Source of the DNA: Candidatus Adlerbacteria bacterium
GTDB taxonomy: Bacteria > Patescibacteriota > Minisyncoccia > Phycocordibacterales > SBAW01
Reading direction: 5' to 3'
Length of the DNA: 64,000 nucleotides
NCBI GenBank assembly: GCA_903851045.1
Contig: CAINNF010000012.1
Location: 37,189-101,188 of the forward strand
Shown here: positions 859-58,734 of the stretch, piece by piece
Position numbering within the stretch: the stretch's first letter is position 1
Layout of the letters: each line of letters starts with the position of its first letter
Notes under the pieces: generated by a model
The model's database searches: none
What the model was told of the DNA's origin: nothing
Seen by the model: the letters and a program-made list of their open reading frames with translations, nothing else
Made by a program: the position numbers and the translations under genes

Positions 859-3009
859 TTATTTTCTCGATGCGACGATGGCGTCGGCGACGTTCTTTGG
901 CACTACTTCGTAGTGATCGAACTCCATCGTGAAGCCCGCACGGCCCTTGGTCATCGAACGGAGGTCGGTCGTGTAGCCGAACATCTCCTTCAACGGGACC
1001 CGTGCGCGGATCGCTGAGTTCATGCCGCGGTCTTCGGTACCTTCGATACTTCCGCGCTTGCCCGAGAGCGAGCCGGTCACGTCGCCGAGATACTCCGACG
1101 GTGTGACGACCTCGACCTTCATGATCGGCTCAAGGATGACCGGGCGAGCGGCACGCGCCGCTTCCTGGAAGGCCATCGACGCTGCTATCTTGTAGGCGAT
1201 CTCGGAAGAGTCGACATCGTGGTAGGAACCATAGGTGAGCTCACAGGAGACATCAACCATCTTGAAGCCCGCGACGATACCGCGCTCCATAGCTTCTTTG
1301 ACACCCTTCTCGACAGCGGGAATGAATTCCTGCGGAATGACACCGCCCTTGATGCTGTTGATGAACTCGAAGTGGTCGTAGCGACTGACGTTCTTAGAGA
1401 CCTTGGCACCTTCGACGATCGGCTCCAATGGCTTGATCTTGATCTTCACGTGACCATACTGACCCTTGCCGCCCGTCTGCTTGATGTACTTGTTCTCGAC
1501 TTCCGCTTCGCCCATGATCGTCTCGCGATATGCCACTTGCGGCGCGCCGACGTTAGCATCGACATTGAACTCGCGCTTCATGCGGTCGACGATAATCTCG
1601 AGATGAAGTTCGCCCATGCCGGAGATAAGGGTCTCGTTGGTCTCGTTGTCCGAGGTAATTTTAAGTGTTGGATCTTCGTCAGAAAGTTCTTTAAGCGCGA
1701 TACCCATCTTCTCCTGGTCGGCCTTGGTCTTTGGCTCGATGCGCAGACTGATGACCGGCTCTGGAAATTTGATCTGCTCGAGGATGATGGGGTTCGCTTC
1801 GTCACAGAGCGTATGCGAGGTGCGCACTTCTTTGAGACCCACCGCGGCGGCGATCTCTCCCGCGTAGACCTTCTTCACCTCTTCGCGCTTGTCTGCCTGG
1901 AGACGGACGATGCGGCCGATGCGCTCCTTCTGACCGGTCGTGGAGTTGTAGATATAAGAACCCGCCTCGACGGTACCGGAGTAGACGCGGAAGAAGGCGA
2001 GCTTGCCAACGAACTTGTCAGCCTGGAGTTTGAAGGCGAGCGCAGCAAACGGCTCCTCGTCGCTAGCGTGGCGCACGACCTCTTCGCCGGTCACCGGGTT
2101 GATACCCTTCACTGGCGGCATGTCCAAAGGAGACGGGAGGTAGTCGACGACCGCGTCGAGCACGAGCTGCACACCCTTGTTCTTAAGCGCTGAACCGACG
2201 CACACTGGGAAGATCTCGTTGGCGATGACACCCTTGCGCAACATCTTCTTGAGGTCTTCGTAGGATGGCTCCTTACCTTCGAGATATTCGTTCATCATAA
2301 CCTCGTCCTGCTCGACAATCTTCTCGATAAGCTCGGCGCGATACTTCGCAACCTCGGCCTTCATATCCTCAGGAATGTCATAGGGAATAACTTCGTCGCC
2401 CATGTTGCCCTCGAACTTGTATGCCTTCTGGTCGAGAAGGTCGATCACGCCCTTAAAGTTCTCCTCAGCGCCTATCGGGAGCTGGAGACGGATGGCCTTC
2501 TTGGTGAGACGGTCGAGGATAGACTGGTAGGACTTCTCGAACGACGCGCCCATGCGATCCATCTTGTTGATGAAGCACACGCGGGGCACATTGGCCTCGT
2601 CGGCATAGCGCCAGTTGGTCTCGGACTGCGGCTCTACGCCCGCCACCCCGTCAAAGACGACGACTGCACCATCAAGCACACGCATCGAGCGCTTCACCTC
2701 GACGGTAAAGTCGATGTGGCCTGGGGTATCGATGATATTGAAACGATACTTCTTGGAGGCATCCTTTTTGTCTGTCTCCTGCGTCTTAGACCAAAAACAG
2801 GTAATGGCCGCCGCGGTGATGGTGATGCCACGCTCACGCTCCTGCTCCATCCAGTCGGTGGTGGTCTCCCCTTCGTGCACCTCGCCGATCTTGTGCTGCG
2901 AACCCGTGTAGTACAAAACGCGCTCAGACGTGGTCGTCTTACCGGCGTCGATGTGGGCGATGATCCCGAAGTTACGCACCTTCTCTAGTGGATAGTCTCG
3001 TGTTGGCAT
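859..3009 (-). CDS. fusA: Translation elongation factor G.
   Basis: 716 aa. G-domain motifs [17 protein letters not shown] and NKMDR. Full EF-G domain architecture with a short KK-rich insert. Confidence 0.97.
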
Positions 3010-3149
3010 ACGTGATAATTATAAAGTAAAAATCCGCCAGCCGGCGGAGCGCACAGGCGTGCTACTACAATAACGAAAACCTGGCAAAAAGCAAGAACAT
3101 AAAATCCCCGACCACTGGTGTGGTCGGGGACGTTTTGGTCAAACTTCTC

Positions 3150-3880: not shown

Positions 3881-4990
3881 CTAGTACCGCTTGACCTTTG
3901 CCCATGCGGTTTTCGTCTTCTTGCGCCACATAACCTGGTACATGGCCCACAGGTAGAGCACGTGGTTGAGATACGCGACCCAAAAGTACATCGGGAATTT
4001 GTACACCACATCAGCTCGTCGCAACTTCACGCCGAACCACAGTGCAACCACAAACGAGACAGCAGCATCCAGCGGGAAGAACCATAACACATCCCACGAG
4101 GGCACGAGAGCGACCCCAACCGCAAGCAACGTAATGCGACTGAAGGCGAGTGCCTCAAAAACGAGATACATCATAAGCGCATCGATACGCTGCTTTCTGA
4201 TGTAGGTAAAACGCCTGACCATCGTCAGGAGGTCGATCGGCTCCTTTCTGAGAGACTCGAAGTTCTCGATGAACGTGAATATCCTCTCGACTCGGTAGAC
4301 CTGGAAACCTCCATAGTACCACCGTAGCACTTGGCGTATATAGTCACGCAAGGTACTCGGGTCTTGAGTAAACACCTTCGCTTTAGGCACATACCTCACT
4401 TCTCCCCCCATTCTATGGCAGGCGATCGTGATGTGCATATCCTCAGCAAGTGTCGCTCCAGAGAAACGAAGTCGGCGCAGTGCGCTAGCAAGATAGGTCG
4501 ACGAGCATCCAGGCGCGACCATGACGACGCCACACCTGGACTGCCCAAGCTTAAAGATCGCTTGGTTTAGGCCGTACTCGGCAGCGCGCGCGGCTGTAAT
4601 CCAGCCCCCACGCAAGTTCATGACCTGGCCAACGAAAATCGCCACATTCGGATGCGCCGTGATCTCATCCACCAACACCTGAAAGTAGTTTGGTGCTGGC
4701 CGAGAATCGGCGTCCAAAAGCGTGATATGTGTGTACCGGTCCCACAGTTGAAAATGTTCGAGAGCTGCATTGAGAGCTTCCGCTTTCCCGCGGTTGCGCT
4801 CGAGCGTGAGAAGATTCACACTCTCGAATCTTCGAACAACCTCAGAAGTGCCATCATCGGAAGCGTCGTCAACTATGAAGATGTCTGCAGGGGCGACCCC
4901 GGCGAGGAACAGCGCTTCGAGCGTACGACCGATCACCTTCCTTTCTTTATACGCGGGCACTAGGACGGCGATCCTGGTATCCACTGTCAC
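3881..4990 (-). CDS. Processive family-2 glycosyltransferase (PgaC/NodC/cellulose-synthase-like) with C-terminal transmembrane helices.
   Basis: DXD motifs (VDDASDDGT and LLDADSRP) and a Q-x-x-R-W motif (QVLRWYYG). The ORF-track start at 5197 overlaps an upstream terminator, so the real start is probably GTG at 4984/4990, downstream of a sigma70-like promoter. Confidence 0.8.
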   Translation of the reverse strand: MTVDTRIAVLVPAYKERKVIGRTLEALFLAGVAPADIFIVDDASDDGTSEVVRRFESVNLLTLERNRGKAEALNAALEHFQLWDRYTHITLLDADSRPAPNYFQVLVDEITAHPNVAIFVGQVMNLRGGWITAARAAEYGLNQAIFKLGQSRCGVVMVAPGCSSTYLASALRRLRFSGATLAEDMHITIACHRMGGEVRYVPKAKVFTQDPSTLRDYIRQVLRWYYGGFQVYRVERIFTFIENFESLRKEPIDLLTMVRRFTYIRKQRIDALMMYLVFEALAFSRITLLAVGVALVPSWDVLWFFPLDAAVSFVVALWFGVKLRRADVVYKFPMYFWVAYLNHVLYLWAMYQVMWRKKTKTAWAKVKRY

Positions 4991-8647: not shown

Positions 8648-8940
8648 GTGTTAACTACCCCCATCCAAAAAAACTCTGTAAACACCGGGCGACAAAGTGA
8701 CTTGGGCCGTTCCATCATTCTGCCTTCGCAACAGGGCCGTGTCGGGGATGACGACCTCCGAAGTACTATCACTCCCCAAAGACAAGGTGATGTGGAGATT
8801 CCTGTCTCGAACAGTAACTCTTTTTACCACCCCAGAACGACCGCCAGGATAGACCATGGGACAACCGACCACGGCGCTCCACTCGACTGGCCAACCTATG
8901 CCAACCCCTCCAAAGGGCATTGTCTTCGCTCCAAAAAGCT

Positions 8941-9085: not shown

Positions 9086-9556
9086 TTACCAGGCGAAGTG
9101 TGCGAACGCCTTGTTCGCCTCGGCCATGCGATGAGTATCTTCGCGCTTTTTGACCGCTGGTCCTTCGTTGTTGGCGGCTGCCATCAGTTCTGCCGCGAGA
9201 CGCTCGTGCATCGGCATACCCTTGCGCGCACGTGCCGCAGTGAGAATCCAACGGTAGGCCAACGCTTGCTTGCGCTCGGGGCGGACTTCACGGGGGACCT
9301 GGTAGTTAGCACCACCGACACGACGTGAGCGGATCTCCATCTGAGGACCAACGTTGCGGATAGCGGTCTCGAAGAGTTCGACCGGGTTATCGGTCTTGGT
9401 CTTCTCCACGATAAGGTCGAAGGCATCATAAACGACCTTGCGCGCGGTCGACTTCTTGCCATCCCACATGACGGAATTGATGAACTTCTCGACGCGCACT
9501 GAACTAAACTTCAGGTCTGGGCCGGCGATATTACGATTTTTTACTGGTCGTCGCAT
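9086..9556 (-). CDS. rpsG: 30S ribosomal protein S7.
   Basis: 156 aa, typical S7 sequence ([10 protein letters not shown]... FAW). Confidence 0.95.
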
Positions 9557-9561
9557 ATAAA

Positions 9562-9975
9562 TTATTTACTCTTCTTGCGCTTCACACCGTACCGACTGCG
9601 AGAGACGTTGCGCTTGTCGACGCCGGAGGCGTCGAGACGACCGCGGACGACCTGGTAGCGGACGTTGATGTCCTTCACGCGGCCGGCGCGCACCATGACC
9701 ACCGAGTGCTCCTGGAGATTGTGACCCTCGCCTGGAATGTACGCGGTAATCTCTTGGCCGTTGGTGAGGCGTACGCGAGCGATCTTGCGGATAGCGGAGT
9801 TCGGCTTGCGAGGGGTCATCGTGGTCACCTTGGTGCACACACCACGCTTGAACGGGGATGGGTAGAAGATCGGGCGGTTCTTAAGTACGTTAAACCCGCG
9901 CTGGAGTGCCGGCGCTTTCGATTTACTCTTCAGTTTTGTGCGTCCCTTGCGGACGAGCTGTGATATGCGTGCCAT
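9562..9975 (-). CDS. rpsL: 30S ribosomal protein S12.
   Basis: 137 aa. Conserved PNSA..K..RV.L and GHNLQEHS motifs. Confidence 0.95.
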
Positions 9976-10044
9976 TAGTACTTAAAAACGCCCTCAGGCG
10001 CTTGTGGGCTACTCTACTATACAGCGGGCAATTGTGCAAACTTT

Positions 10045-10120
10045 ACTACTTGTTCGGACCATACTCCCCGTGGGCTTCGCAGATTTCTTTCATAAGCCCC
10101 GGACCTTCAAAGGTCGTATT
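10045..10120 (-). pseudogene. Diverged remnant of a pyrD 3' end (C-terminal about 23 codons) between the rpsL start and the upstream gene.
   Basis: On the minus strand it encodes TFEGPGLMKEICEAHGEYGPNK*. The authentic pyrD C-terminus is MVFEGPGLMKEICEAYAEEYGGR*. About 70 nt at roughly 80% identity to 11336-11400. Confidence 0.35.
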
Positions 10121-10126
10121 GGCCAT

Positions 10127-10169
10127 ATGGCAAAACGACCCGTCACTCACCAAGGTGAGGACGGGTCGT
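10127..10169 (-). terminator. Intrinsic terminator after the hypothetical gene 10190..10651.
   Basis: ACGACCCGTC-15 nt-GACGGGTCGT stem followed by TTTTG on the minus strand. Confidence 0.45.
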
Positions 10170-10189
10170 GGGTACTCAAACGATCTCGT

Positions 10190-10651
10190 TCATGATGTAC
10201 CGCTCAGCTGCCTGATCGTCGACAGCGTGTCTTCTGCAATGACGAGCGCAGGATCTTGAAGCTTGGCGACCACTCCATCAAGCTGCGGCTTGACCACTGC
10301 CAAACGTTCAGTCGCCCGAGCAATGACCCCTTCGAGCTCGGCCACCTCTCGCTGCAGAGCGGGTAGCTGTTCTCGATACTTACGCGCTTGGTCGACGATT
10401 TGTGAGAGTTTTTTTACCTCCGCAATAAGAAGGTCGCTGGCGACAAGTGATGGTGCCGCAGGGACCGTAGGCTGAGACGGTGCAGTCTTCACAGGCAACT
10501 CCGTTGGCGTATAGGAACTCGCACACAGCCGCTCAAGATGGTGACTGGCGATACAGAGCAACGTATCCGCGCTACCTGGCTCCAAGTAGCCCGCCTCGAT
10601 AAGACCTTGCAGGTCTGTCTCAGAGGACTGTCGGCCAAGCTGCCGTAGCAC
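10190..10651 (-). CDS. Hypothetical protein: Pro-rich linker plus C-terminal coiled coil. Probably the 3' part of a frameshifted gene.
   Basis: 153-aa ORF. Its reading frame stays open upstream across the stop of ORF 10723..11181. Confidence 0.45.
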   Translation of the reverse strand: MLRQLGRQSSETDLQGLIEAGYLEPGSADTLLCIASHHLERLCASSYTPTELPVKTAPSQPTVPAAPSLVASDLLIAEVKKLSQIVDQARKYREQLPALQREVAELEGVIARATERLAVVKPQLDGVVAKLQDPALVIAEDTLSTIRQLSGTS

Positions 10652-32371: not shown

Positions 32372-33661
32372 ATGACACACAACGAGCATTTAGACGAGCT
32401 CGCGAGATCCTTCGCGCTCAAAACGCTTCCCGACTCCGAGGTCGAACTCGAGGGGGACATACCCTTTGCCGACATAGAGCCGCTCCAGGAGCGCGCACTC
32501 AGGCACTTTGCCGAAGAGGTGGAGTTGCCCGGCTTTCGCAAAGGGCATGTACCGCTCGACATGGTCAAGAAGCGCGTCGGCGACATCGCGATCCTCGAGG
32601 AGGCGGTGGAGTTCTTCATGCGAGACTTCTATCCCGCACTCGTCACGGTACGCGAGGTAGAGGCCATCGGCCGCCCCGAGATCCGCATCACGAAATTGGC
32701 ACCCGGCAATCCGATCGGCATCGTCATCAAGACCGCCGTCTACCCTACCATCGAACTCCCCAAGGGATGGAAGACGCTCCACGAGTCTATCCCCCAGGAA
32801 GATGCGTCGGTCGTAACCGACACTGAGATCGACGACGCACTCACCTCGATCCGTCGCGCATATGCGAAGGCGAACATGACGACCGCAGCAGGAAAGTCGG
32901 ATTCTGCAGCGTCCCCTAGCAGTCCTGCAGCGGAGGAGTCCGACTTTCCTGCTGCGGATACACAAATCCCCACCCAGGCAGCGGCAGCATCTGCTTCTTC
33001 CGCTGCAGGTCATAACGGGGACGCTGCAGAAGCAGATGCTGCCGCTGCCTCCCCCATCACCAAAATTCCCGCAGAGGACACGCTTCCTTCGCTCGATGAC
33101 GCGTTCGCGCAGTCGCTCGGACCGTTCGCGAACCTTGCGGACCTCAAGGACAAGATGCGTCAAAATCTTTTGACGGAGAAGGAGCAAAAAGCTCGCGACG
33201 CTCGCCGCGGTAAGGTAATCGAAGCGCTTCTCGCGAAAGCCGACTTTTCTGTCCCGACCATCTTCGTCGACAGCGAGCTCGAGAAGATCCTTGGTCAGAT
33301 GGGCGAGGATGTGCAGCGCTACGGCATGACGATGGAGGACTATCTCAAGCGCATCAACAAGACCGAGACGGATGTGCGCAACGAGCTTCACGACCAAGCG
33401 ACCAAGCGCGCTCGACTCCAGCTGATACTCAACAAGATCGCTGGCGAAGAGAAGATCGAACCCGACCAAGCGGCGGTAGATGAGGAGATGAAGCACGCGC
33501 TCGAGCACTTCCCCGAAGCGCGCCCCGACCTCCTCAAGATTCACATCGAGACCATCATCCGCAACGACAAAGTCCTCCAGATGCTCGAGGGCAAAGAGGT
33601 CGAAAAGGCAAAAGCACCCGACCACCACAACCACGAAGAGCACGACCATTCACACGGGTAA
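32372..33661 (+). CDS. tig: Trigger factor with an Ala/Ser-rich low-complexity insert and a His-rich C-terminal tail.
   Basis: GFRKGHVP signature. Insert AAGKSDSAASPSSPAAEE... and tail DHHNHEEHDHSHG. Confidence 0.85.
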   Translation: MTHNEHLDELARSFALKTLPDSEVELEGDIPFADIEPLQERALRHFAEEVELPGFRKGHVPLDMVKKRVGDIAILEEAVEFFMRDFYPALVTVREVEAIGRPEIRITKLAPGNPIGIVIKTAVYPTIELPKGWKTLHESIPQEDASVVTDTEIDDALTSIRRAYAKANMTTAAGKSDSAASPSSPAAEESDFPAADTQIPTQAAAASASSAAGHNGDAAEADAAAASPITKIPAEDTLPSLDDAFAQSLGPFANLADLKDKMRQNLLTEKEQKARDARRGKVIEALLAKADFSVPTIFVDSELEKILGQMGEDVQRYGMTMEDYLKRINKTETDVRNELHDQATKRARLQLILNKIAGEEKIEPDQAAVDEEMKHALEHFPEARPDLLKIHIETIIRNDKVLQMLEGKEVEKAKAPDHHNHEEHDHSHG

Positions 33662-33978: not shown

Positions 33979-35532
33979 TTACTTACAAAGCCGCTCCCGC
34001 AGCTCAGCAAGTTTGGCGAATGGACTATCCGAGTTGGTTTCACCAACCCGGCCATCCTCCGAAGTATCGTCCACCTTGGGAGCTTGTGGCTCCCGTTTGG
34101 GTTTTACAGGAACAGTAGGTGACACCTGCTCCTGCCTTGCGGAAGCGACGCGAACGCCGCTTTCCGTCACCCACGAGCAGCCGTGAAGCTGCCCGAGCCG
34201 AGCGAGGGTTTCCCTTTGTTCGGGCGTGAGCCCGTCAACAGGAAGTTTGTGCACCACACCATCGCGCTCGGCATGCTCGCGGAACCCCTCCCACGAGAGA
34301 GACGCCTCCCTTGGGTACACATAGTCCCAGTGACGGGTATGTGTCCCCCGCTGGTGCGACCGAGAGTATTCGTCTCGGTCGTGCTCGCGCAGCGATCCGT
34401 CTGGACGGATAACGTACCCGCCCCCGTCGCCGCGCTGACTGCTCGTATGCACAAAAGCGGAGAAATCCGCGAGAGCACGACCAGACGCAACTGCTGCAGC
34501 CATCTGCTCGGCCTCTTCGGCTTTGCGTCTAGCTTCAGCTTCTTCTGCAGCCTGACGCCTTGCCTGCTCCTCGGCACGAACGCGAGCAGTCTCGAGCTGT
34601 TCGCGGAACTTCACCAGCTCCGCGACCGCATGGTTGCATACCTGTTCCGCCTCACTGCGCTGCCGTTTCCAGGAAAGCACGAAATAGGTCCGAGACCAGG
34701 ATGTATTTGCCTCGACCACGCCGTATACCTTGAGGTCGCGGCCATTTATGTCGCGGCCGTAGACAAACTCAACCAGTGGCGGAATCGTCGCCGTATGATT
34801 GGACGCAAAATCCGGCACAGAAACTTCCGGAAACTTCGCAGCCCGCCACACAGCATCATTCCATCCAGCAGACGTGAGTCCGCCAGATAAATCAACCTCA
34901 ACCAACGGGGCTGAAAGAAGCAACTCACCGTTCGCAACGCGAGTTGTGATGCTCGCGACCGCTTCGTCGGTGAGCTGCGGAACAGGGAAATTATATTCCA
35001 AGTCCCTGCCCTCTTGCCGCCGCGAGTAGAGATCGCCCACGAACGGCTTCACACCACCCGCAATCCAGATGAGTGGTTCGACCATACCCTTTGCGGGGGC
35101 ATGGTCGAACTGCTCGAAAACGAGCAGTGCAGCGGGCGAAAAGCGACTCGCATAGACTGAACCGTTAGAATGGAAGTAGTACGTCGAATACCCCTTCCAT
35201 GCATCGGGCACTAGCCCGAAACGAGCGGTAAGAAGCGCAGACGCTTCTTGTTCGCCGAACAGTGCACACGAGCGGAGGACCTCCGCTTCATGTGCAATTG
35301 CCTGTCGGACGGCCTTGCCCAGATCGAACCATGCATGGTTCGCCTGGTACATTGCTCTGCCCCGCGCGTCGCGCTTCTCTACCGGGACGAGCTCGACCCG
35401 GACGATCTGCCCAGGATCAACATCGCGCGGCAAGAAGACGATGCTTCCGCCGTGCGACGAGATGCACTGACGCGTCTCGTCGTACTTTTTCCCCTTCTCT
35501 GCAAGAAGGGTCGCAATAGGTGTGTCGGCCAT
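33979..35532 (-). CDS. Hypothetical 517-aa protein. N-terminal TRAM-like beta-barrel domain (paralogous to 38585..39322), a central coiled coil and an uncharacterised C-terminus. Last gene of the island operon.
   Basis: GGSIVFLPRDVDPGQIVRVELV resembles a TRAM domain (G.V.F.P...PGE.V.V.I). GAGGGAGGG RBS. ARRQAAEEAEARRKAEEAEQ coiled coil. Confidence 0.6.
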   Translation of the reverse strand: MADTPIATLLAEKGKKYDETRQCISSHGGSIVFLPRDVDPGQIVRVELVPVEKRDARGRAMYQANHAWFDLGKAVRQAIAHEAEVLRSCALFGEQEASALLTARFGLVPDAWKGYSTYYFHSNGSVYASRFSPAALLVFEQFDHAPAKGMVEPLIWIAGGVKPFVGDLYSRRQEGRDLEYNFPVPQLTDEAVASITTRVANGELLLSAPLVEVDLSGGLTSAGWNDAVWRAAKFPEVSVPDFASNHTATIPPLVEFVYGRDINGRDLKVYGVVEANTSWSRTYFVLSWKRQRSEAEQVCNHAVAELVKFREQLETARVRAEEQARRQAAEEAEARRKAEEAEQMAAAVASGRALADFSAFVHTSSQRGDGGGYVIRPDGSLREHDRDEYSRSHQRGTHTRHWDYVYPREASLSWEGFREHAERDGVVHKLPVDGLTPEQRETLARLGQLHGCSWVTESGVRVASARQEQVSPTVPVKPKREPQAPKVDDTSEDGRVGETNSDSPFAKLAELRERLCK

Positions 35533-35656
35533 GTCGGCCCTCCCTCAGAGGAATCATTCCTCAACGGCCCAATCTCCCCCATGGAGACAAGGCCGATAAA
35601 GGAGGCCTCGGACACACCAACCACGGTGCGCCCGAGACCAAACCAGAAAAGAACTG

Positions 35657-37261
35657 TCAGAGGCGGTTGAATACCTCTTGTGCGTCGGCGTCGGAGAACG
35701 ACGAGGCACGAAGAATGTCGCCATCGCAGAACCTCTTGAGCGTGGCGTCGCTCGTATGGCCAACGTCGCAGAGAATCCCCACGACATTGACCCCACGCAG
35801 ACGCTTTTCTGCAAGAAATTCCGCCAGAAACGCCTCCGTGACATGGGCGTCGCCATCGGTGATGAAGGCAATGTCCGCTTTTTTGAGACCCTCAATCCGA
35901 ATCGTATTCATCGCGTCGGTGAGCGGACGCTCAAAGTCCGTACCCGATGCTTTGAGAAACGTTTCGGCGATCTCAAGGGTCTCTCTGGGCGAGAGTCGTC
36001 CACCTTTATACACACGGGTCACGTTTTTGGAATCACGTGCTCCGTAATGTATCCAAACGAACGATCTTTTGCGGAGTTTTGCATAGTATGCAAGTGCGAG
36101 CACTGTCGCCTTCGCCCACACCTGCTTCGCCCCTTCCATAGAACCGGAGCCATCTTCGCAGACCACCACCGGCCCCTCGCCCATTTTTTGCTTCGCCTCT
36201 TCGCCACGCAGACGAAGCTCGCCCCTGCTCCAGCGCGTGAGAGCTTTCGTACGGAGTGCAGGATGCGCGAGCGCAACAAGCTCGGAGGAGACCGCGCGTT
36301 TGATGTCGCGGCCCGTCTCAAACTTCGTCACGCGCACACCCTCGGCCTGCTCCTTGGACCGCGCCTTGCGAGCAGCGATCTTTTTGATTCGGCCGAGGAT
36401 TTTAGCGAAGTCCTTGAACGCTTTATTATTTTGTATGCGTTCAAGAAGGGCGAGAGCTTCGGGGATACCCTCACGGGTCAACTCCCCTTCCTCAAAGCCC
36501 CATGTCTGGAGGGTCTCCGACACCTCCTCGACCTTCTCTTTGGCTCGCTTCGCTGCGGCGAGGCCGAGGCGTGCGAGCTCTTGCAGTTTCTTTGCCGCTG
36601 CTTCGCTCCCGGGTTTCCCCATCAGCGATTCGGCGGCGGCATCGGCTTGCGCCTGCGCAGTATCAGCTGCCGCACGAGCAGCTTGCGCCTGTGCACGTGC
36701 CTCTGCCGCTTGCGCGGAGAGACCGGCTGCTTGTGAAGAGGGTTGCCCCGCCCCGCCAGCAGATTGTGCTTGCTCGGCCAATTCGCCGAGCATATCAGCC
36801 TCAGCTTCGGCCTTTTGAGCTTCGGCCTCTGTCTCGTCCGCCGTATTTTGCGCGTCGGCGGACTCTTGAAGCTTTTTTGCATCCCCTTTCGACACATTCG
36901 CGACGATGGTGTCACCCATCGTGAGCGTGCCAAGGATGGACGCGAGCTCCGAGAACCGCGTCTGCGCATGGAGCCCCTCGTAGGCGGATGTCGCCATCGC
37001 GCCTTTGAGAATCTCCGCGAAGAAGCTCCGGTCGCTCGGCGCATCATCGCGCACCACAGGCGTTGCCGCCCAAAGCACGTGATAGATGTCGGCGAGCGCG
37101 CCGGCAGTGCCGGGGAGCTTCTGCTCCCCGGCAGCCTCGAGTTCGGCAAGTGCGGGCATACGCTCGCGTTGCCGGAGGAAGCGGAGCGCCGTGAAGGCGT
37201 CCGCGTCTGTCACGAGCAGCTTTTGCAAGTCTGCCCGCGACAGTGTCTTCGGTGCCTTCAT
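35657..37261 (-). CDS. vWA-domain protein (CoxE-like; C-terminal von Willebrand A domain with MIDAS). Partner of the upstream MoxR ATPase.
   Basis: VVVCEDGSGSM (DxSxS) ... ITDGD MIDAS motif. Ala/Gln-rich coiled-coil N-terminal half. The start is 8 nt after the MoxR stop, with a GGTAGGAGGGG RBS. Confidence 0.8.
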   Translation of the reverse strand: MKAPKTLSRADLQKLLVTDADAFTALRFLRQRERMPALAELEAAGEQKLPGTAGALADIYHVLWAATPVVRDDAPSDRSFFAEILKGAMATSAYEGLHAQTRFSELASILGTLTMGDTIVANVSKGDAKKLQESADAQNTADETEAEAQKAEAEADMLGELAEQAQSAGGAGQPSSQAAGLSAQAAEARAQAQAARAAADTAQAQADAAAESLMGKPGSEAAAKKLQELARLGLAAAKRAKEKVEEVSETLQTWGFEEGELTREGIPEALALLERIQNNKAFKDFAKILGRIKKIAARKARSKEQAEGVRVTKFETGRDIKRAVSSELVALAHPALRTKALTRWSRGELRLRGEEAKQKMGEGPVVVCEDGSGSMEGAKQVWAKATVLALAYYAKLRKRSFVWIHYGARDSKNVTRVYKGGRLSPRETLEIAETFLKASGTDFERPLTDAMNTIRIEGLKKADIAFITDGDAHVTEAFLAEFLAEKRLRGVNVVGILCDVGHTSDATLKRFCDGDILRASSFSDADAQEVFNRL

Positions 37262-37269
37262 AGCCCCTC

Positions 37270-38472
37270 CTACCGGCGGACGCCCGTCGCCTTCGCGACG
37301 AACTCCGCCTTCTTTTTGCCAACCTCTTTCCGCAGGTCGGCGATTGCGGTCTTATCGACCCCGCTTGCCTCACCTTCGAGACGACCGAGCTCGCGCTCGG
37401 TCTCCTCGAACTGCGCGAGCGCGGGAACCAGCTTGTTGCGGTCGCCGCCCTCGACGAGAGCGACCATGCCACCCGGCGCAAAAAGCGCGTCCACCTGCTC
37501 CTGCGCATCCGAGAGAGGCGTGCGCACGAGCGGGGCAATCTTCGCCTTCACGACCGGGATCTGCTCGGGAGTGTCCCAGAGCAGGTACTCGAGCACGCGC
37601 AGATCGGCAGAGCCGACCTGCGCACGCCCGTCGAGTATCGCCGACGCTTGCAAGACGTCGAATACCCGCCCGAATCGCCGATCGTCGTCCCAGAGCCACT
37701 GGAAACCGGCCGTGTCCTCGTCGAGCAGCTGCTGATACAAGTCGAGAACGAGCTCGACCATATCGTCAGCAACCTCGACGAACGGCCGCGCTTCCCGCAG
37801 CGTCTCGACTTCCGCGAGCGAAAGCCGAGCAGCGGCAGACACAGCAGCACCACGGTCGCGAACAAGTCGCGCCGCAACGAGCGACAGCTTTCCACCGCGA
37901 TCCAGCGGGTCCACCTGCACGCGGAGGGTCATTCGCGACCACATCGCGCCCAGGTTTCCTTCTGGGTCGGGCGGCTCGTTGCTGGCCGCGAGAAACGCGA
38001 GAAGCGGCGGCTTGAAGTCGCGCCCCTCGTGCCGGATTGCGTCCCCGTTCGCGAAGTCGAGAACGGTCTGGAGAACGCGCGGGTCCCCCTTCCATATCTC
38101 GTCCGCGAAGAAGAAATGTGCGTTCGCGGCGCGCCCGATCGAGTCACGCGTGCGAATGAGCTTGCGCCCCTCCGCGTCGACTGACTCCTCGATCGCGGTC
38201 TCTTCGACGAAGAGTCCCTCGAACGAGGTCATGGTCGGCATGAGAGCCCCGTAGTAGCGGGCACCCTCGATCACGCGCGACAAGTCCTTCACGGTGCCCG
38301 TTTTGTTGATACCGGGCGATCCGAGAAAGAACGCGGGGTGGCCGGCGACCGTCGCGAGCATCGTTGCCCGCACGATTGCCTCGCGTCCGATGTTGCGCGA
38401 AGCAACGTCGGCCCCGACAATCGCCACTTTCGGCGCGAGGCCTGTGGCGAGATTGAGAATTTCCTTATTCAT
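37270..38472 (-). CDS. MoxR-family AAA+ ATPase.
   Basis: Walker A GSPGINKT, Walker B FFFADEIWKG and sensor-1 AASNEPP in MoxR-type spacing. 400 aa. Confidence 0.85.
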   Translation of the reverse strand: MNKEILNLATGLAPKVAIVGADVASRNIGREAIVRATMLATVAGHPAFFLGSPGINKTGTVKDLSRVIEGARYYGALMPTMTSFEGLFVEETAIEESVDAEGRKLIRTRDSIGRAANAHFFFADEIWKGDPRVLQTVLDFANGDAIRHEGRDFKPPLLAFLAASNEPPDPEGNLGAMWSRMTLRVQVDPLDRGGKLSLVAARLVRDRGAAVSAAARLSLAEVETLREARPFVEVADDMVELVLDLYQQLLDEDTAGFQWLWDDDRRFGRVFDVLQASAILDGRAQVGSADLRVLEYLLWDTPEQIPVVKAKIAPLVRTPLSDAQEQVDALFAPGGMVALVEGGDRNKLVPALAQFEETERELGRLEGEASGVDKTAIADLRKEVGKKKAEFVAKATGVRR

Positions 38473-38486
38473 CAGTCTGTCCCTTT

Positions 38487-38590
38487 CTTGCCCGTGACCT
38501 TCGACTTCGCTCAGGTCGTGGGCGTGGGTGCCGCGAGCGTCCTCGCAGCTTGTTTGAAGATTTCATCGCCATAATCCCGTCGGATTATGG
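38487..38590 (-). repeat. Leader repeat copy 1 (about 104 nt) immediately upstream of the MoxR start. Contains the palindrome CCATAATCC-gacg-GGATTATGG.
   Basis: About 90% identical to 39347..39428. Both copies end 25-30 nt before a start codon, with GGTCACGGGCAAG then an RBS then ATG. The palindrome overlaps the TAA stop of the upstream gene. Confidence 0.7.
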
Positions 38591-39322
38591 TTCGCGGAGT
38601 ATTCTGTCTGCCTCCGCGTCGGACATCCCTACAGTGAGACGCGTGCTTAGCGCCTCATTGCGTGTGGATGCCCGCTCGACACTCTCAAGCCATGCATCCG
38701 AAATCTGTACACGCCGATACTCCTTACCGGCCTGCACAGCATCTGCGATAGACGGATTAGCCATCCACTGCAGACACTCTTCCAGCTGGAGCTGGTCTGC
38801 GCTTGGCAGAAGCTCGAACACAAGGAGCATCTGCCGCGAGAGAGTCGTGTGACGTATCTCCCCCGAGGCGAATATGACGCGACCGTACTCAATACTAGGT
38901 GCGCCACTCCACTCACGCGCCAGACTGAAGAGCAGAGCTCGACGCTTTATCCAAGAAAGCGACCGAGCGAACCCAGTCCCCTCTTGGAGCATGCGAGAAA
39001 AAGCCTGCTCCATTGGGAGCGACTCTCCATCACGCTCCATGCGGAGAAGCATGCTTGCTTCTTCCGCAATTGCTCGCCTGCACTCTTGCGATAGGGTTGG
39101 AGGTGCGAGCTCGCCACGGTACATGAATGCCCCGGTAGCACTTCTTTTCGCCAAAACTTGTAGTCTGGCTCGTACAACCGAGCCAATTTTCAGACTTGGC
39201 GGCAAAAATACAATGGGTCCGCGACGAATCCTCCCGCCGATGAAGCCGACGCGGTCGGCGTCACTTCTTCGGCCTCGCTCGACAGCGAGGTATTCCACCT
39301 TGCCGTCCCTGTTTTCATCCAT
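38585..39322 (-). CDS. Hypothetical 246-aa protein with an N-terminal TRAM-like domain (paralog of the N-terminus of 33979..35532).
   Basis: GRIRRGPIVFLPPSLKIGSVVRARL aligns with GGSIVFLPRDVDPGQIVRVEL, and RRAIAEEA aligns with RQAIAHEAE. The ORF track starts at 39436; the ATG at 39322 (MDENRDGK), preceded by GGAGAGGATGGAGAT, is the likelier start. Confidence 0.55.
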   Translation of the reverse strand: MDENRDGKVEYLAVERGRRSDADRVGFIGGRIRRGPIVFLPPSLKIGSVVRARLQVLAKRSATGAFMYRGELAPPTLSQECRRAIAEEASMLLRMERDGESLPMEQAFSRMLQEGTGFARSLSWIKRRALLFSLAREWSGAPSIEYGRVIFASGEIRHTTLSRQMLLVFELLPSADQLQLEECLQWMANPSIADAVQAGKEYRRVQISDAWLESVERASTRNEALSTRLTVGMSDAEADRILREP

Positions 39323-39346
39323 ATCTCCATCCTCTCCTTGCCCGTG

Positions 39347-39428
39347 ACCTAAGTCGTGGGCGTGGGTGCTGCGAACGTCCTTGCAGCTTGGTTGAAGATG
39401 TCCTCGCCATAATCCCGTCGAATCATGG
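39347..39428 (-). repeat. Leader repeat copy 2 (about 82 nt) upstream of the TRAM-like gene. Contains the imperfect palindrome CCATGATTC-gacg-GGATTATGG.
   Basis: Alignment with copy 1 shows a 12-15-nt indel and about 8 substitutions. Confidence 0.7.
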
Positions 39429-39627
39429 CGAGCCAACGCGTCGCTTTCGCGACACCGGTAGCCTGCATGCCTCCGATGCCGTGCTTGTGCGCCGCGATGG
39501 AGGCAAGGTCGAACGCGGCCGAAGGCGACTTATCCCGCGCAATGCCAATGCACTCCATACGGAGCGCCTCGGGCACCTGCGCGAGCACACCGGCACGAAG
39601 CTGGAGCTCATGCAGTGGACGAGACAT
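39349..39627 (-). CDS. Possible small ORF (92 aa) overlapping the HD-gene stop and reading through leader repeat copy 2. Doubtful.
   Basis: Start overlaps the HD stop by 20 nt. GC-rich region. The corresponding frame in copy 1 is closed. Confidence 0.25.
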   Translation of the reverse strand: MSRPLHELQLRAGVLAQVPEALRMECIGIARDKSPSAAFDLASIAAHKHGIGGMQATGVAKATRWLAMIRRDYGEDIFNQAARTFAAPTPTT

Positions 39628-40132
39628 GCTCGACCTCCCGCAAAAGCTCCTCGATTAAGGGCGCGCCATCCGGATCGATCTCGTACCACAGCGGCAGCGC
39701 AGACCGAATCTCCGCAAGCTTGCGCTCACGGAACTCAGGTGGCGCGTGCCGCAGAGTGTTGAGATTGTCCAGGCGGTCGGACCGCTTCACAGTGACCGCT
39801 AAGCAGCCACCGACGGCCACGCGACGAAGATACACTGCATCCGGCTCCTCTTCCTCCTCGTGGCTTAATGCACGAACGACCCGCGCCACTCGCTCGCCGA
39901 ACTGCTCGGCAAGCGCAGCATCCGTCGTGTCCGTATCCTCGAGCACATCGTGCAAGAGGGCGGACACAATGAGATCCTCAGCATCACTGCCGAGGAGCCC
40001 GTTGTCGCACGCGAATTGCGCGGCAATAAGCGCCACGCGCATCACGTGCTCAATCTGGGACTCGCCGCCGGGGCGGGTTTGTCCCTTATGTCCCACTTGC
40101 GCGAACGCAAGCGCTGCGGGAATTTTATTCAT
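39608..40132 (-). CDS. Stand-alone HD-domain hydrolase of Rel/SpoT type (small-alarmone-hydrolase-like), 174 aa.
   Basis: HVMRVALIAA...ALLHDVLEDTDTT...EQFGERVARVVRALSH matches the ppGpp-hydrolase HD domain of RelA/SpoT/Mesh1 (RVA...ALLHDVVEDT...FG..VA.LV.GVTK). Start MNKIPAAL at 40132 with a GGAGA RBS; the ORF track over-extends to 40519. Confidence 0.7.
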   Translation of the reverse strand: MNKIPAALAFAQVGHKGQTRPGGESQIEHVMRVALIAAQFACDNGLLGSDAEDLIVSALLHDVLEDTDTTDAALAEQFGERVARVVRALSHEEEEEPDAVYLRRVAVGGCLAVTVKRSDRLDNLNTLRHAPPEFRERKLAEIRSALPLWYEIDPDGAPLIEELLREVEHVSSTA

Positions 40133-40241
40133 AGGTCTCCTCGTCCCTATCAACCCGCGAATGATCCGCGAGCTGAATAAGTCTGGCGAACGCACACGGT
40201 ACCACCGCGCACGCTCGCCAAAAAACCAAGAACCAGTTACT

Positions 40242-41975
40242 TCACCACGGGCACCGTGTCGTTTCGGTGCCCGAGATGACCTCTTCTGCGTCCCATATAA
40301 GGGCGTTTTCGTTCCAGAACGTGGCGGAAGTCTTGTCCGCGTTCCGGTCCCACGGCTCAGCGGGACACCGTGTCCCGATGAAAGCCGTGAGGAGAACGTA
40401 GGCACCGCCGGTGGTGCGCTTGACCAGCACCACCACCCGCGAGCACGGCTCGGGCTTCCGGTTTTTGACGAACCGGGTGAGCCCGCGACGATTCGGCCGC
40501 TGGGCATAGACGATTTCATCCGCGCTAGTTGTCGCGACGCGGATGTTTTCGCCGACGACTCGCCCCATGTCGAGTTCGGCGATAACGACCTCGCGGCTGT
40601 CCGAACTCATCATACTGAGTGCCTCAGCGAGGCACGGAAGCACGCTCGAGTGCGTGGCGACGTGACTATCTTTCACGTCGACCACAAATTCACCCGACGC
40701 AAGCCGTCCCAAAATGGGGACGCCCCAGCGCAAAAGATCGAACGAAACCGGGAAGATTTCCCCGACCTTTTCGTCCGGGCCGGCGACGACAACCGCCGGT
40801 CCAGCGAAGGGGTACGCCTCGTCCCACAGCCGCCCGCCGAGGGTAGGCTGCGCCCGGCCGGACTCAACCGGCCAGAACTGCCCCACCCACGGACAGCCCG
40901 CGCGCGCGTAGGCACGCACGAGTGTCGCATGGAGCCACATCGGCGGGCCGTCGTTTGCGACGACGGCCGGCCGTGAGGTGTCCACACCGGGCGGCACCAG
41001 TTGCCGCAGGTCATCCACCGTGATGAAGCGCGTATTGCGCCACTTCACCAAAGTGAATTCGGGAAGTGCGAGCACTTCCCACTCGACACCCGGACAAAAG
41101 CCCGAGCCCGACGGCGTCACTTCGGGGATACGGATGTACCCCTTGCTGACGTCGTAGAGCTCGACTGCGCCCGAGAGTCGGGCGGCGTAGGCCGAGGCCA
41201 GAATCGCCGCGCGGGCGTTGTACACTCGCACGGTTTCGAGTTTGTTTGCCGCACGCGCCAAGACGAGTGCCGGACGCAGATGCGCCGGACGCACGCCAAG
41301 AAATGGATCGTGCGCATCGTCAACGCCAAGCCGCGTCAACAGTGACGCGACATTAATGTTGGCGATGAGCTCTCCATTCGTGATCTCTCCGTTTTCACGG
41401 ATGATCTCACGAAGACGATTCACAACCGCGTCGAGCGTGGGCGACTGGATAGTCTGCCCACGCTCGAGTCCCGAGATCCGCCCGCGGACGACGCCGTCGC
41501 CGCGGTCGACATACAGCTCGCAGGTGCCGTGAAGCACACTGTCGAGCTCGGCGAGCACGGCGACATTGCGCGCAGCAGCAAATTGCCGCCACGCAACGAC
41601 TTCATCCTGCTTGGACGAGAGGATGATGCACGCGTCGCATGCATCAAAAATCCTCTCGTTCGCCTCGGAGCGAACGCCGCCGGTGTCTACCAACACCAGC
41701 GGTTGTTCGTTGGCTTTGATGGCCTCCACCATCGAGCCAACGAAGTTTTCCGTGAATTTTCCCTTTTGCCGCACCGCGGCGACCAAGACTTGGTCGCCAA
41801 AGTTACTCCAGTGCCACTCCCCATCGGGGGCGGCAAAGGCCAGATAGAAGCTGTCTGGCGGCAGCTGGCACATCAACTGCGCCAAGAATACGGACTTGCC
41901 GCTGTGCGGCGGCCCGCAGACGATGACACGCCGCATGGCGCTTCTCCTCTCTTTGTTTGTGTGAACCTTTATCAA
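40242..41975 (-). CDS. 577-aa protein: an N-terminal P-loop NTPase/kinase-like domain (about 150 aa) fused to a large uncharacterised C-terminal domain.
   Basis: Walker A VIVCGPPHSGKSV and LVLVDTGG (Walker B/G3-like). The C-terminal 400 aa have no recognised motif; the ELD..K / VVLVK stretch could be nuclease-like. GAGAGGAGAAG RBS. Confidence 0.6.
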   Translation of the reverse strand: MIKVHTNKERRSAMRRVIVCGPPHSGKSVFLAQLMCQLPPDSFYLAFAAPDGEWHWSNFGDQVLVAAVRQKGKFTENFVGSMVEAIKANEQPLVLVDTGGVRSEANERIFDACDACIILSSKQDEVVAWRQFAAARNVAVLAELDSVLHGTCELYVDRGDGVVRGRISGLERGQTIQSPTLDAVVNRLREIIRENGEITNGELIANINVASLLTRLGVDDAHDPFLGVRPAHLRPALVLARAANKLETVRVYNARAAILASAYAARLSGAVELYDVSKGYIRIPEVTPSGSGFCPGVEWEVLALPEFTLVKWRNTRFITVDDLRQLVPPGVDTSRPAVVANDGPPMWLHATLVRAYARAGCPWVGQFWPVESGRAQPTLGGRLWDEAYPFAGPAVVVAGPDEKVGEIFPVSFDLLRWGVPILGRLASGEFVVDVKDSHVATHSSVLPCLAEALSMMSSDSREVVIAELDMGRVVGENIRVATTSADEIVYAQRPNRRGLTRFVKNRKPEPCSRVVVLVKRTTGGAYVLLTAFIGTRCPAEPWDRNADKTSATFWNENALIWDAEEVISGTETTRCPW

Positions 41976-42110
41976 GCCAACCCCGTTTCACTGGGACGAG
42001 CTTGAGCAAGGTCTCGAGCCGGTTACCAACCAGCTCGAGGACCAAACCGAGTGAGCGTGCCGTGCCACGCTCACCAAACCGTTAACACCTACAACACGGG
42101 CAAGTGAAGA

Positions 42111-43336: not shown

Positions 43337-43425
43337 GTATGCGACCCCTCTTTCCAGCACGATGGGGCGAGCGCAATATATTTGTGCTGCTCGCATGCCG
43401 GCATAGTGCGGAAAAGAGGGGTCAC
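43337..43425. repeat. Nested-hairpin element: outer inverted repeat ATGCGACCCCTCTTTCC / GGAAAAGAGGGGTCACAT enclosing the GCGAGC..GCTCGC and ATGCCGGCAT palindromes.
   Basis: Read directly. The GCGACCCCTC core recurs at about 44207 and 49487. Confidence 0.5.
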
Positions 43426-43644
43426 ATCTGTGGATTTCCTTTCTCCTCGTTTGAAACCGCTATTCGATTAGCTCGAAGTGAGTCATCAGATACTGGTTTC
43501 AAGTAGGAGGACGAGCGCATAACCAAGCGCTCGCCTCAAGTTTGGAGAGTTTATACCCAGGCACTCCCCTGCCTGTTGCGAACGCTGCCGTGTCAGCGTT
43601 CGCGATGAACTATTCCCCTGCACGGAGGGGTTTGGAGGCGAATC

Positions 43645-44019: not shown

Positions 44020-44949
44020 GTAATCCTCCATTTGGAGACCTCGTCCATCCCACACCCATGACAGTGCGGCGAGGCGGCCTTGCGGCCATGTTTGTGTGCC
44101 CGGGCAACGTGACACTGCACGAATTGGCGCGATGAAGGCGCCAACGGCCCGGTTTTAGTCAGCGTGACACTGCACGCGGGATCGCTCTTCTTTCGAAGTG
44201 CACATGCGACCCCTCTTTCCGGTTCGACTTCCCTCGATAAATCTCGGGATAAATCGCTCACCGTAAACGGCAAACGAACATTCAAGCCGGAGAAGAGGAA
44301 TAACATTGTGATTATCTGCTTTCGCAGAAAGTTTTTTCACGTTTTCCTGTTCTACCTATGGCATCCAGACACACTGTTTAGGAGCGATCTGGAAGAATTT
44401 TGTCAAAGACCTTTCCTTCAGGCGGCCGTGGCCTTGGCGAAGGAGCCCTCTCTATGAGGACATTTCTAAGCATGAAAGCTGGTTTAGGTCTTTCGTGCTC
44501 AGCCGATGTCTCCCCGAGCCTTTGGCTCGGGACCCCGCAAAGCTCGTGAGAGCGCAGTGGGGCCAAAACAACGTTCGATACAGCTGGCTTCTCGCCCTAC
44601 TCTCACGGCTGGGGACCCATTTGCGGAGGTGCCATGCCCGAGAGACCGTATCTGCAAATAGAGATTTATTTCGAGCCGCCTCTCATCCCCACTCTCTCCT
44701 CTTTCTACGCTTAGCCGCTTTGCAGCAGGGGCCGTAGTACCCTCCCGGCGAGCCGGGACTAGAGGTGGGGGACGATTCGAATGAAACCTCCCGTCTATGA
44801 TGAACTCTTGCTTCGGGCTATTCCCTCGGCATCTGACAACATCTTAGCATTTTCATTGCCAAGTGTCAAGCCATGTGTGGCAAATAATCGTTCTCGTGTC
44901 ACGCAAAATACCCTTGATTTGTATGTATTTTATACGAAATAAGGTTTTA

Positions 44950-58577: not shown

Positions 58578-58691
58578 ATGAGACCTCCTCTGTACGGTGT
58601 ACGATCCCCTCCTCCCGCTCCAACCCCTGTGGGTTGGTTCAGGTGGCGGTGTAAAAAAGAATCTTATATTCCTTACATCGACACCCGAACG

Positions 58692-58734
58692 AAAACAAAC
58701 AGAGCCCCCGTGGGAGCTCTGTTTGTTTTTTGCT
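58692..58734. terminator. Strong, probably bidirectional intrinsic terminator downstream of the MTase gene.
   Basis: AACAAACAGAGC-ccccgtgg-GAGCTCTGTTTGTTTTTTGC. Confidence 0.55.

Follow-up and report, generated by a model that had tools for sequence, protein, structure and literature searches.

Why do two genes of one operon begin with almost the same piece of DNA? The question is raised by a contig of a Candidatus Adlerbacteria bacterium (CAINNF010000012.1), of which we analysed a stretch of 64 kb, called here the window. In this window, the gene for a MoxR-type AAA+ ATPase and the gene just upstream of it, which encodes a protein of 245 amino acids (aa) and which we call ins245, are each preceded by a copy of the same element. 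We find that the repeat corresponds to a segment of the operon mRNA, a sense-strand RNA that is conserved and structured. Ancestrally, it is the coding 3' end of a small upstream gene, small92, together with the translation-start region of the MoxR gene, and its duplication is a by-product of the insertion of ins245. On balance, we consider it probable that this structured mRNA unit, duplicated with the insertion, acts in cis, presumably as a recognition site. For comparison we collected about 60 related loci (about 50 distinct, numbered from L001), mostly from metagenome-assembled genomes of Patescibacteria (Candidate Phyla Radiation, CPR) and from groundwater, sediment or hot-spring metagenomes.

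The two copies of the element are in direct orientation. All coordinates are those of the window, and the operon genes and both copies lie on its minus strand:

38472-38597, minus strand: copy 1, a non-coding relic of the small92 tail followed by the MoxR leader, found with covariance model R1; it holds a 105-nt island that is 95% identical to L001.
39322-39435, minus strand: copy 2, the last 27 codons of small92, the stop codon, the Shine-Dalgarno (SD) sequence and the spacer to the start of the 245-aa gene, found with R1 and by translation.

Over a core of 76 nt (38515-38590 against 39353-39428) the copies are 89% identical, in agreement with a preliminary description of this DNA, which had reported two copies of about 90% identity. 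A single indel, put there at 12-15 nt and found here to be 12 nt, separates the core from the block GGTCACGGGCAAG, which is the same letter for letter at 38487-38499 and 39337-39349. As had also been described, the block leads through the ribosome-binding site to the ATG at a set distance, 14 nt in both copies (MoxR, 38472; 245-aa gene, 39322). The ranges given earlier captured the existence of the two copies; that of copy 2, however, stopped at 39347 instead of 39337, so that most of the GGTCACGGGCAAG block was left out. The earlier remark that no other gene of the island carries this sequence holds: pattern searches found no third copy within the window, and R1, run with filters off over the whole window, returned only the two copies (copy 2, 117 bits, E = 3e-30; copy 1, 101 bits, E = 9e-26), the next score being 20 bits. 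This 20-bit match (58661-58728, minus strand) is a perfect 17-bp hairpin, AAACAAACAGAGCUCCC/GGGGGCUCUGUUUGUUU, followed by a U-rich run; we rejected it as a further copy, since it is an ordinary hairpin resembling an intrinsic terminator and is unrelated to the element. Neither extra copies nor a wider set of hairpins with G(A/G)CG loops exceeded chance in the window. Contigs from several independent samples carry this arrangement with 100% identity, which rules out an assembly artefact. We also discarded a dispersed palindromic repeat, of the kind of repetitive extragenic palindromes, miniature inverted-repeat transposable elements (REP/MITE-like) or integron attC sites, since there are two copies in 64 kb, both in one operon, and the relatives have a single copy within a coding region.

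Copy 2 is not the non-coding leader that it had been taken for, but lies within an overlooked open reading frame (ORF):

39349-39627, minus strand: small92, a conserved 92-aa gene whose 3' third carries two hairpins, H1 and H2, and the 5' arm of a third, H3.

This reading frame ends in ...AMIRRDYGEDIFNQAARTFAAPTPTT*, and its final 27 codons are those of copy 2. The small92 family comprises 56 homologues of 82-103 aa, with identities as low as 45%. Its most conserved motif is AKATRWLA[VM]IRRD[HY]G, and the H1 palindrome encodes A-M-I-R-R-D-Y-G. The predicted structure (predicted local distance difference test score, pLDDT, 93.5) consists of five helices, the final six residues, which correspond to the 5' arm of H3, being disordered; the fold had no significant structural match in the PDB and the protein no Pfam family, and the literature that we searched describes neither this RNA nor the small92 family. 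Copy 1 keeps the frame of the small92 tail open (...TIIRRDYGDEIFKQAARTLAAPTPTT*), in the -1 frame relative to ins245 and over 47 codons.

Both copies fold stably as RNA (-46 and -49 kcal/mol, z = -3.5 and -4.2), and the consensus is one of three independent hairpins without a junction. From 5' to 3' on the minus strand, the parts of the two copies are:

39403-39432, minus strand: H1 of copy 2, a 13-bp RNA stem with two G·U pairs and a GACG loop, encoding L-A-M-I-R-R-D-Y-G-E.
39368-39387, minus strand: H2 of copy 2, GCUGCAAG-GACG-UUCGCAGC, with one A·C mismatch.
39340-39361, minus strand: H3 of copy 2, GCCC-AC-GACU-loop-GGUC-AC-GGGC, with the small92 TAG (39349-39351) reaching from the loop into the 3' inner arm by one base.
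39320-39339, minus strand: SD and start of the 245-aa gene, SD AAGGAGAGGA at 39330-39339, a spacer and the ATG at 39320-39322; the start matches that of the 245-aa database protein P0057.
38569-38590, minus strand: H1 of copy 1, a perfect 9-bp stem with a GACG loop, the ins245 TAA (38585-38587) lying in the 5' arm.
38530-38549, minus strand: H2 of copy 1, an 8-bp stem with one G·U pair, GCUGCGAG-GACG-CUCGCGGC.
38490-38523, minus strand: H3 of copy 1, with the stems of copy 2 and the ancestral loop, 12 nt longer, which holds the relic stop TGA (38511-38513).
38470-38489, minus strand: SD and start of the MoxR gene, SD AAGAAAGGGA at 38480-38489, a spacer and the ATG at 38470-38472.

The palindrome first noticed here, 9 bp around a gacg loop, is perfect in copy 1 and forms 13 bp, two of them G·U, in the RNA of copy 2. 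It had been said to overlap the stop codon of the preceding gene; this is true of copy 1, where the codon is the TAA of the 245-aa gene, but not of copy 2, where the palindrome lies inside the 92-aa ORF.

Across the related loci, H1 and H2 carry G(A/G)CG tetraloops, and the GACG loop is kept despite changed Arg codons (AGA CGT in L024 and L028). The outer stem of H3 is a near-invariant GCCC/GGGC with the compensatory variants GCGC/GCGC and GGCC/GGCC; its 2x2 internal loop is unpaired and A/C-rich (AC/AC in 14 of 28), and its inner stem covaries freely, with 22 different versions. Between the end of H3 and a long purine-rich SD there is 0-1 nt, and in 28 sequences the start codon is 11-21 nt (median 16) away from the H3 base, so that the structured site is conserved at a fixed position relative to both. 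The upstream stop codon falls inside the H3 loop in 16 of 26 loci, 5-23 nt 5' of H3 in seven and 3' of H3 in three; where small92 ends early (L010, L018, L038, L039), H3 is wholly intergenic. H3-plus-SD modules stand before several genes of one operon, namely before a p153 homologue, small92 and MoxR in L038 (2412-2435, 3966-3988, 4257-4280, the one at 3966 coming after a long untranslated spacer) and before MoxR and a p517 homologue in L010 (4176-4198, 7120-7142), which indicates that the module has been copied more than once. A riboswitch aptamer would be expected to have a multi-helix junction with a conserved core that binds the ligand; H1-H3 have no junction, yet their conserved loops and linkers could form tertiary contacts.

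That these hairpins exist as RNA is supported in several ways. Firstly, RNAalifold predicted H1-H3 independently from a MAFFT alignment of 23 sequences (A3), with compensatory changes in 12 of 20 pairs. Secondly, paired cells in A3 amount to 88.9%, against 81.6±0.6% in 500 shuffles, none of which reached the observed value, and 31-43% for slid partners; pairs changed on both sides number 17 against 7.9±1.7, and the covariation score is 0.291 against a control of 0.167. A model-fitted alignment of 53 sequences (A4) gives 86.6% against 73.8±0.6% for paired cells and 183 against 49±8 for double-change cells. Thirdly, when synonymous codons were resampled with the protein fixed, the observed pairs exceeded every resampled value, both in H1 (211 against 153.4±5.2, maximum 173 of 5000) and in H2 (148 against 114.7±3.4, maximum 126). 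H1 covaries, for instance, as ATG...CAT, GTA...TAC and ATA...TAT, and as Ile(A)...GAT against Val(G)...GAC. Lastly, G·U outnumbers A·C in paired columns (53:18 in A3, 105:52 in A4; P about 3e-5), an excess expected of a sense-strand RNA but not of a DNA palindrome or antisense transcript. Fold, covariation, synonymous-site pairing and G·U excess together support the proposal in the preliminary description of a shared cis-acting RNA before the ATPase and TRAM-like genes. The contrary case, a duplication found here alone whose palindrome and spacing are not conserved, does not apply: both are conserved in about 50 homologous loci.

How did the element come to be present twice? The answer lies in the gene between the two copies:

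38585-39322, minus strand: ins245, an inserted 245-aa gene, paralogue of the 198-aa/p517 family found at the end of the operon, with a putative OB/TRAM-like N-terminal domain.

A 245- or 246-aa gene between small92 and MoxR, followed by a second copy of the small92 tail, occurs in the window and in L001 only (the small92 proteins of the two being 82% identical), and only two cluster representatives of its protein exist in a set of 5.8 billion. By BLASTP this diverged paralogue matches p517 (E = 1e-11) and a 198-aa protein (4e-16). Insert-free loci include L002-L004, L052 and L054-L056, and the insert-free junction of L056 and L013 reads tail, TGA, GCRRAGTCGAAGG, 3' arm of H3, SD and ATG of MoxR, which is the layout of copy 1. 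The duplicated unit runs from codon 67 of small92 to the start codon. With insert-free relatives on the one hand and direct repeats flanking ins245 in the window and L001 on the other, the repeat is best explained as a segmental duplication that accompanied a gene insertion. On the simplest account, tandem duplication or recombination would have carried a copy of the terminal gene to the small92-MoxR junction. The 12 nt missing from copy 2 of the window are present in copy 2 of L001 as well as in the insert-free L056 and L013; the indel is hence a deletion in copy 2 of the window. Copy 1 of the window and copy 1 of L001 resemble each other more than either resembles copy 2 of its own genome, and they share derived states (ACC ATA, AAA, GCG, TGA), so that the duplication is older than the split of the two lineages. 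The same shared states make gene conversion an unlikely cause of the conservation of copy 1 described below.

The insertion split the RNA element from its coding role and thereby provides a natural experiment. Translation ends within H1 of copy 1, about 95 nt 5' of the MoxR ATG, and ribosomes do not reach H2 and H3. The relic of the small92 tail is identical at 74 of 79 positions between the window and L001, against 66-88% (pooled 74.7%) at the fourfold sites of neighbouring genes (relic against pooled, P = 1.2e-5). The conserved island, from CCATAATCC to GGGCAAG, spans 105 nt with five differences (95% identity), and its flanks are roughly 50-68% identical. Constraint is detected on the stems (P = 0.003) and on the unpaired linkers (P = 0.002) of the relic, and its substitutions have no codon-position bias. 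In L001 the relic has undergone an Asp-to-Gly change at the Asp that is invariant in the family and a Pro-to-Leu change, both at second positions; the former implies that the constraint does not act at the protein level. Since the non-coding copy 1 is still conserved as a sharp island, its RNA sequence and structure appear to be under selection apart from coding. From this comparison, the RNA itself probably matters, and the conserved relic points to dual selection, for protein and for RNA, on the last third of small92.

The element belongs to an operon whose common gene order is AAA-Csx3, SpoT-like HD, small92, MoxR (RavA-like), VWA (ViaA-like) and a gene of the 198-aa/p517 family, with small92 25-40 nt 5' of MoxR in nearly all related loci. 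The other genes of the operon in the window are:

40242-41936, minus strand: AAA-Csx3 fusion gene (padloc AAA-Csx3, 9e-45), its end taken from the 564-aa call on related contigs.
39608-40132, minus strand: SpoT-like HD hydrolase gene; the gene calls on identical contigs give 174 aa.
37270-38472, minus strand: MoxR/RavA-like AAA+ ATPase gene (Pfam bpMoxR, 1e-17; NCBIfam RavA, 5e-30, under the curated cut-off).
35657-37261, minus strand: gene for a ViaA-like VWA protein, part of the operon context.
33979-35532, minus strand: p517, homologous over its N-terminal ~200 aa to ins245 and the 198-aa proteins encoded in related operons.

The padloc defence annotation of the system matched the AAA-Csx3 protein alone, and a phage origin was rejected, no relative having been found among viral contigs. 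The structural model of ins245 has a pLDDT of 79.9, lower in the N-terminal domain. Foldseek matches of this N-terminal beta-domain are weak (E 0.03-0.1, probability up to 0.96) and include the TRAM domains of RimO, RumA and RlmCD and, in the same weak listing, the S1/OB domains of Rpb7, bS1 and NusA; Pfam gave no match for ins245. In L003, a serine recombinase gene (9317-10279; Resolvase/Recombinase/Zn_ribbon_recom) lies just 3' of the operon, which hints that the system may be mobile. Eight further loci (L007, L008, L021, L022, L025, L027, L029 and L043) have unrelated small ORFs of 65, 70 or 115 aa between small92 and MoxR and long structured spacers before MoxR, and most of them have the small92 stop in the loop of a simpler hairpin; the small92-MoxR junction appears to be a hotspot of gene gain.

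What, then, does the element do? Some known kinds of element could be set aside. The terminator or antiterminator suggested earlier does not stand, as no T-run lies 3' of any coding-strand hairpin; for an intrinsic terminator in particular, H3 is followed by the purine-rich AAGGAAAGGA, and neither copy has a terminator-like site on the minus strand. Rfam 15 gave no match with E <= 1 in the window from 36000 to 42000 and none overlapping the element in six related loci. Masking of the SD, as by an attenuator or a riboswitch expression platform, and an insulator that exposes the SD both found no support: the SD and start codon are as accessible as in shuffled controls.

The explanation that we favour, tentatively, is a recognition site (translational operator) for a factor of the system. 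It is favoured because sequence is conserved in the loops, the internal one included, in the outer stem and in the linkers, because the start codon follows at a fixed distance and because the element is specific to this operon. The element would act in cis, at the translation-initiation region of the gene 3' of it, as a site recognised by both its sequence and its structure. The partner would probably be a factor of the system itself, which does encode a protein family with weak OB/TRAM-like similarity; this 198-aa/p517/ins245 family is the candidate. Once bound, the factor would set the translation or the fate of the mRNA of MoxR and, in this lineage, of the paralogue as well. A narrower version, which we find rather doubtful, is that H1-H3 form a dedicated operator RNA recognised by the OB/TRAM-like family or by another operon protein, giving translational feedback. 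If true, duplication of the operator placed the inserted regulator paralogue under the same control as the ATPase, within a feedback loop of a MoxR-VWA / AAA-Csx3 / SpoT-like-HD conflict system found mainly in CPR bacteria. As a rarer variant, the element might sense a nucleotide signal handled by the Csx3 or HD enzymes.

Several points weigh against a recognition site. The protein partner of the operator is a candidate only, and small92 is without a recognisable RNA-binding fold. The unpaired probability from SD to AUG is 0.609 in native and 0.598 in shuffled sequences (32 sequences, P = 0.54); as the modelled fold has no effect on the accessibility of the SD and start, control must go via a factor or via kinetics. 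The homologous sequences are kin, so the shuffle-based statistics overstate independence. Conservation of the relic rests on two lineages, and if the neutral rate is taken from the best-conserved neighbour (the HD gene, 88%), P rises to 0.08. Finally, loci of the short group, whose small proteins have 82-84 aa, possess a simpler hairpin with the stop in its loop and without GACG loops.

Ranking second to a recognition site, and somewhat unlikely in our estimate, is a cis structure that needs no factor: a stabiliser or processing signal of the mRNA, whose 5' hairpin beside a strong SD would guard the MoxR-VWA segment once the polycistronic transcript has been processed, or a standby site on which the 30S subunit docks. 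This would suit the invariable position of H3 beside the SD, 11-21 nt from the start codon, and the reuse of H3-plus-SD modules before several genes; likewise, H2 and H3 of the relic are kept though never translated, so that it is the folded form that matters, and candidate hammerhead ribozymes on the sense strand of related operons suggest intercistronic processing. A generic role does not account, however, for the sequence conservation of outer stem, A/C internal loop, G(A/G)CG loops and linkers between loci with proteins of only 45-50% identity, and Rfam detected no ribozyme or other known RNA in the structured operon spacers of the window itself.

Translational coupling, by which ribosomes ending small92 would melt H3 and re-initiate at the adjacent SD and ATG, tying MoxR to the synthesis of small92, is improbable. 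It would account for the upstream stop in the H3 loop of 16 of the 26 loci, with the start within about 30 nt, and for the stop-in-loop hairpin that short-group loci likewise have before the next gene. It is at odds with an SD and a start codon left unmasked by the fold, with the loci in which the stop lies 5' (seven) or 3' (three) of H3 and with H3 modules that follow long untranslated spacers (L038, 3966); moreover, ribosomes on copy 1 halt in H1, yet the untranslated H2 and H3 are conserved.

An element acting as DNA, be it the palindromic operator of a transcription factor or a gene-capturing hotspot of recombination, is very unlikely. The insertion breakpoint does fall exactly at the 5' arm of H1, and unrelated small genes were gained at the same junction in other lineages. 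Nevertheless, the predominance of G·U over A·C fits a single RNA strand, the stems vary by compensatory substitution and have no fixed sequence, the AC/AC internal loop keeps H3 from being a true DNA palindrome, and the coding strand has no promoter-like site.

Still less credible is that the RNA has no function, the repeat being protein-coding sequence recently duplicated in a segment and its relic too young to have decayed. Eight of the ten non-stop differences between the two copies of the window do fall at third codon positions (P = 0.003), and the palindrome encodes the invariant IRRD(H/Y)G; against this, pairing at synonymous sites is far above a coding-aware null, H3 persists where it is non-coding, and the two lineages, which parted after the duplication, differ at 25% of fourfold sites but at only 5% in the relic. 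Weakest of all is a programmed -1 frameshift, which H1 would stimulate at the end of ins245 so as to add a 26-residue small92 tail (...IIRRDYGDEIFKQAARTLAAPTPTT): the open -1 frame of copy 1 and the stable hairpin at the stop would allow it, but no X-XXY-YYZ slippery site precedes H1 in the window (…AGA AUA CUC CGC GAA CCA UAA) or in L001 (…CUC AAA GAA CCA UAA), the stop codon lies within the H1 stem and not 5' of it, and the L001 relic has its Asp-to-Gly and Pro-to-Leu changes with no codon-position bias in the relic.

Other structured or repeated sequences were noted in the operon, its relatives and the rest of the window. The VWA-p517 spacer (35533-35656, minus strand; 124 nt) is 95% identical between the window and L001, above the flanking genes, and is predicted to be very stable (-68.7 kcal/mol for 141 nt); its hairpins are unrelated to H1-H3 and gave no Rfam match, and the operon may here possess another conserved RNA element. 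The long spacer 5' of the AAA-Csx3 gene (about 41937-42110, minus strand) has several strong hairpins (-70.3 kcal/mol for 166 nt), also without an Rfam match. Among the relatives, L004 contains a candidate type III hammerhead ribozyme on the sense strand (8733-8787, plus strand; 44.2 bits, gathering score 48.5) with an intact CUGAUGAG...CGAAAC core, and L038 a weaker one (3008-3071, plus strand, sense; 32.3 bits). These matches suggest that some relatives process the operon mRNA by self-cleavage; no such candidate was found in the window. A second short repeat, ATGCGACCCCTCTTTCC..., lies in the spacers 5' of the two 156-aa genes of the island (43339-43362 and 44204-44227, 88% identical; inverted partner at 43402-43427) and may be another shared intergenic motif. 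Strong inverted repeats occur at 32883-32957 and 32976-33050 (22 nt, 95% complementary; 28 nt, 93% complementary), in or next to the ORF region 32372-33661.

The element recalls several known systems. Translational operators bound by protein include the coat-protein operator of phages MS2 and R17 and the autoregulatory leaders of ribosomal-protein operons. As in operators of the MS2/R17 type, a hairpin stands by the ribosome-binding site, its stem is variable as long as it pairs, certain unpaired nucleotides and nearby pairs are conserved, and it serves one operon. The MS2 hairpin holds the start codon, whereas H3 ends just 5' of the SD and leaves SD and AUG unpaired; here, moreover, there are three hairpins, two of them within the upstream ORF, and the partner is a candidate. 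Stabilisers at the 5' end of mRNAs are known from the hairpins of the E. coli ompA 5' untranslated region, the Bacillus aprE and ermC leaders and the STAB-SD of B. thuringiensis cryIIIA. Like these, the element places a stable hairpin directly 5' of an SD that is both strong and extended, and hairpin and SD together make up a modular, portable unit. Those stabilisers lie at the 5' terminus of the transcript, be it primary or processed; the element is internal to the operon, overlaps a coding region and is more conserved in sequence than a generic stabiliser would require. Classic coupling structures keep the downstream SD or AUG covered until a ribosome arriving from upstream opens them. The element shares with them an upstream stop near the downstream start and a structured intercistronic region linking the two, and differs from them in an accessibility equal to that of shuffled controls and in the conservation of the untranslated H2 and H3 of the relic. 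Intercistronic structures of this kind are treated in a review (PMC12548453, J Bacteriol 2025) and in a biophysical model (PMC4538824).

At the level of proteins, the operon resembles the MoxR-vWA ternary conflict systems whose architectures are described by Kaur et al. (eLife 2020, PMC7159879): a MoxR AAA+ ATPase gene, here with its bpMoxR match, is followed by a vWA gene, with further linked components. We found no mention there of the RNA element, the small92 family or the upstream AAA-Csx3/HD/small92 module. The element is a previously undescribed cis-acting mRNA structure that overlaps a coding region and stands outside any curated RNA family. The MoxR-VWA/AAA-Csx3/HD operon, itself uncharacterised, occurs mostly in uncultured Patescibacteria (CPR), whose gene regulation is almost unexplored, and gains with this element a well-supported, hitherto unannotated mRNA structure. 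The covariance model built here could serve to find and annotate the element elsewhere. Its fixed hairpin-plus-SD module offers a testable handle on how the subunit ratios of such a system are set.

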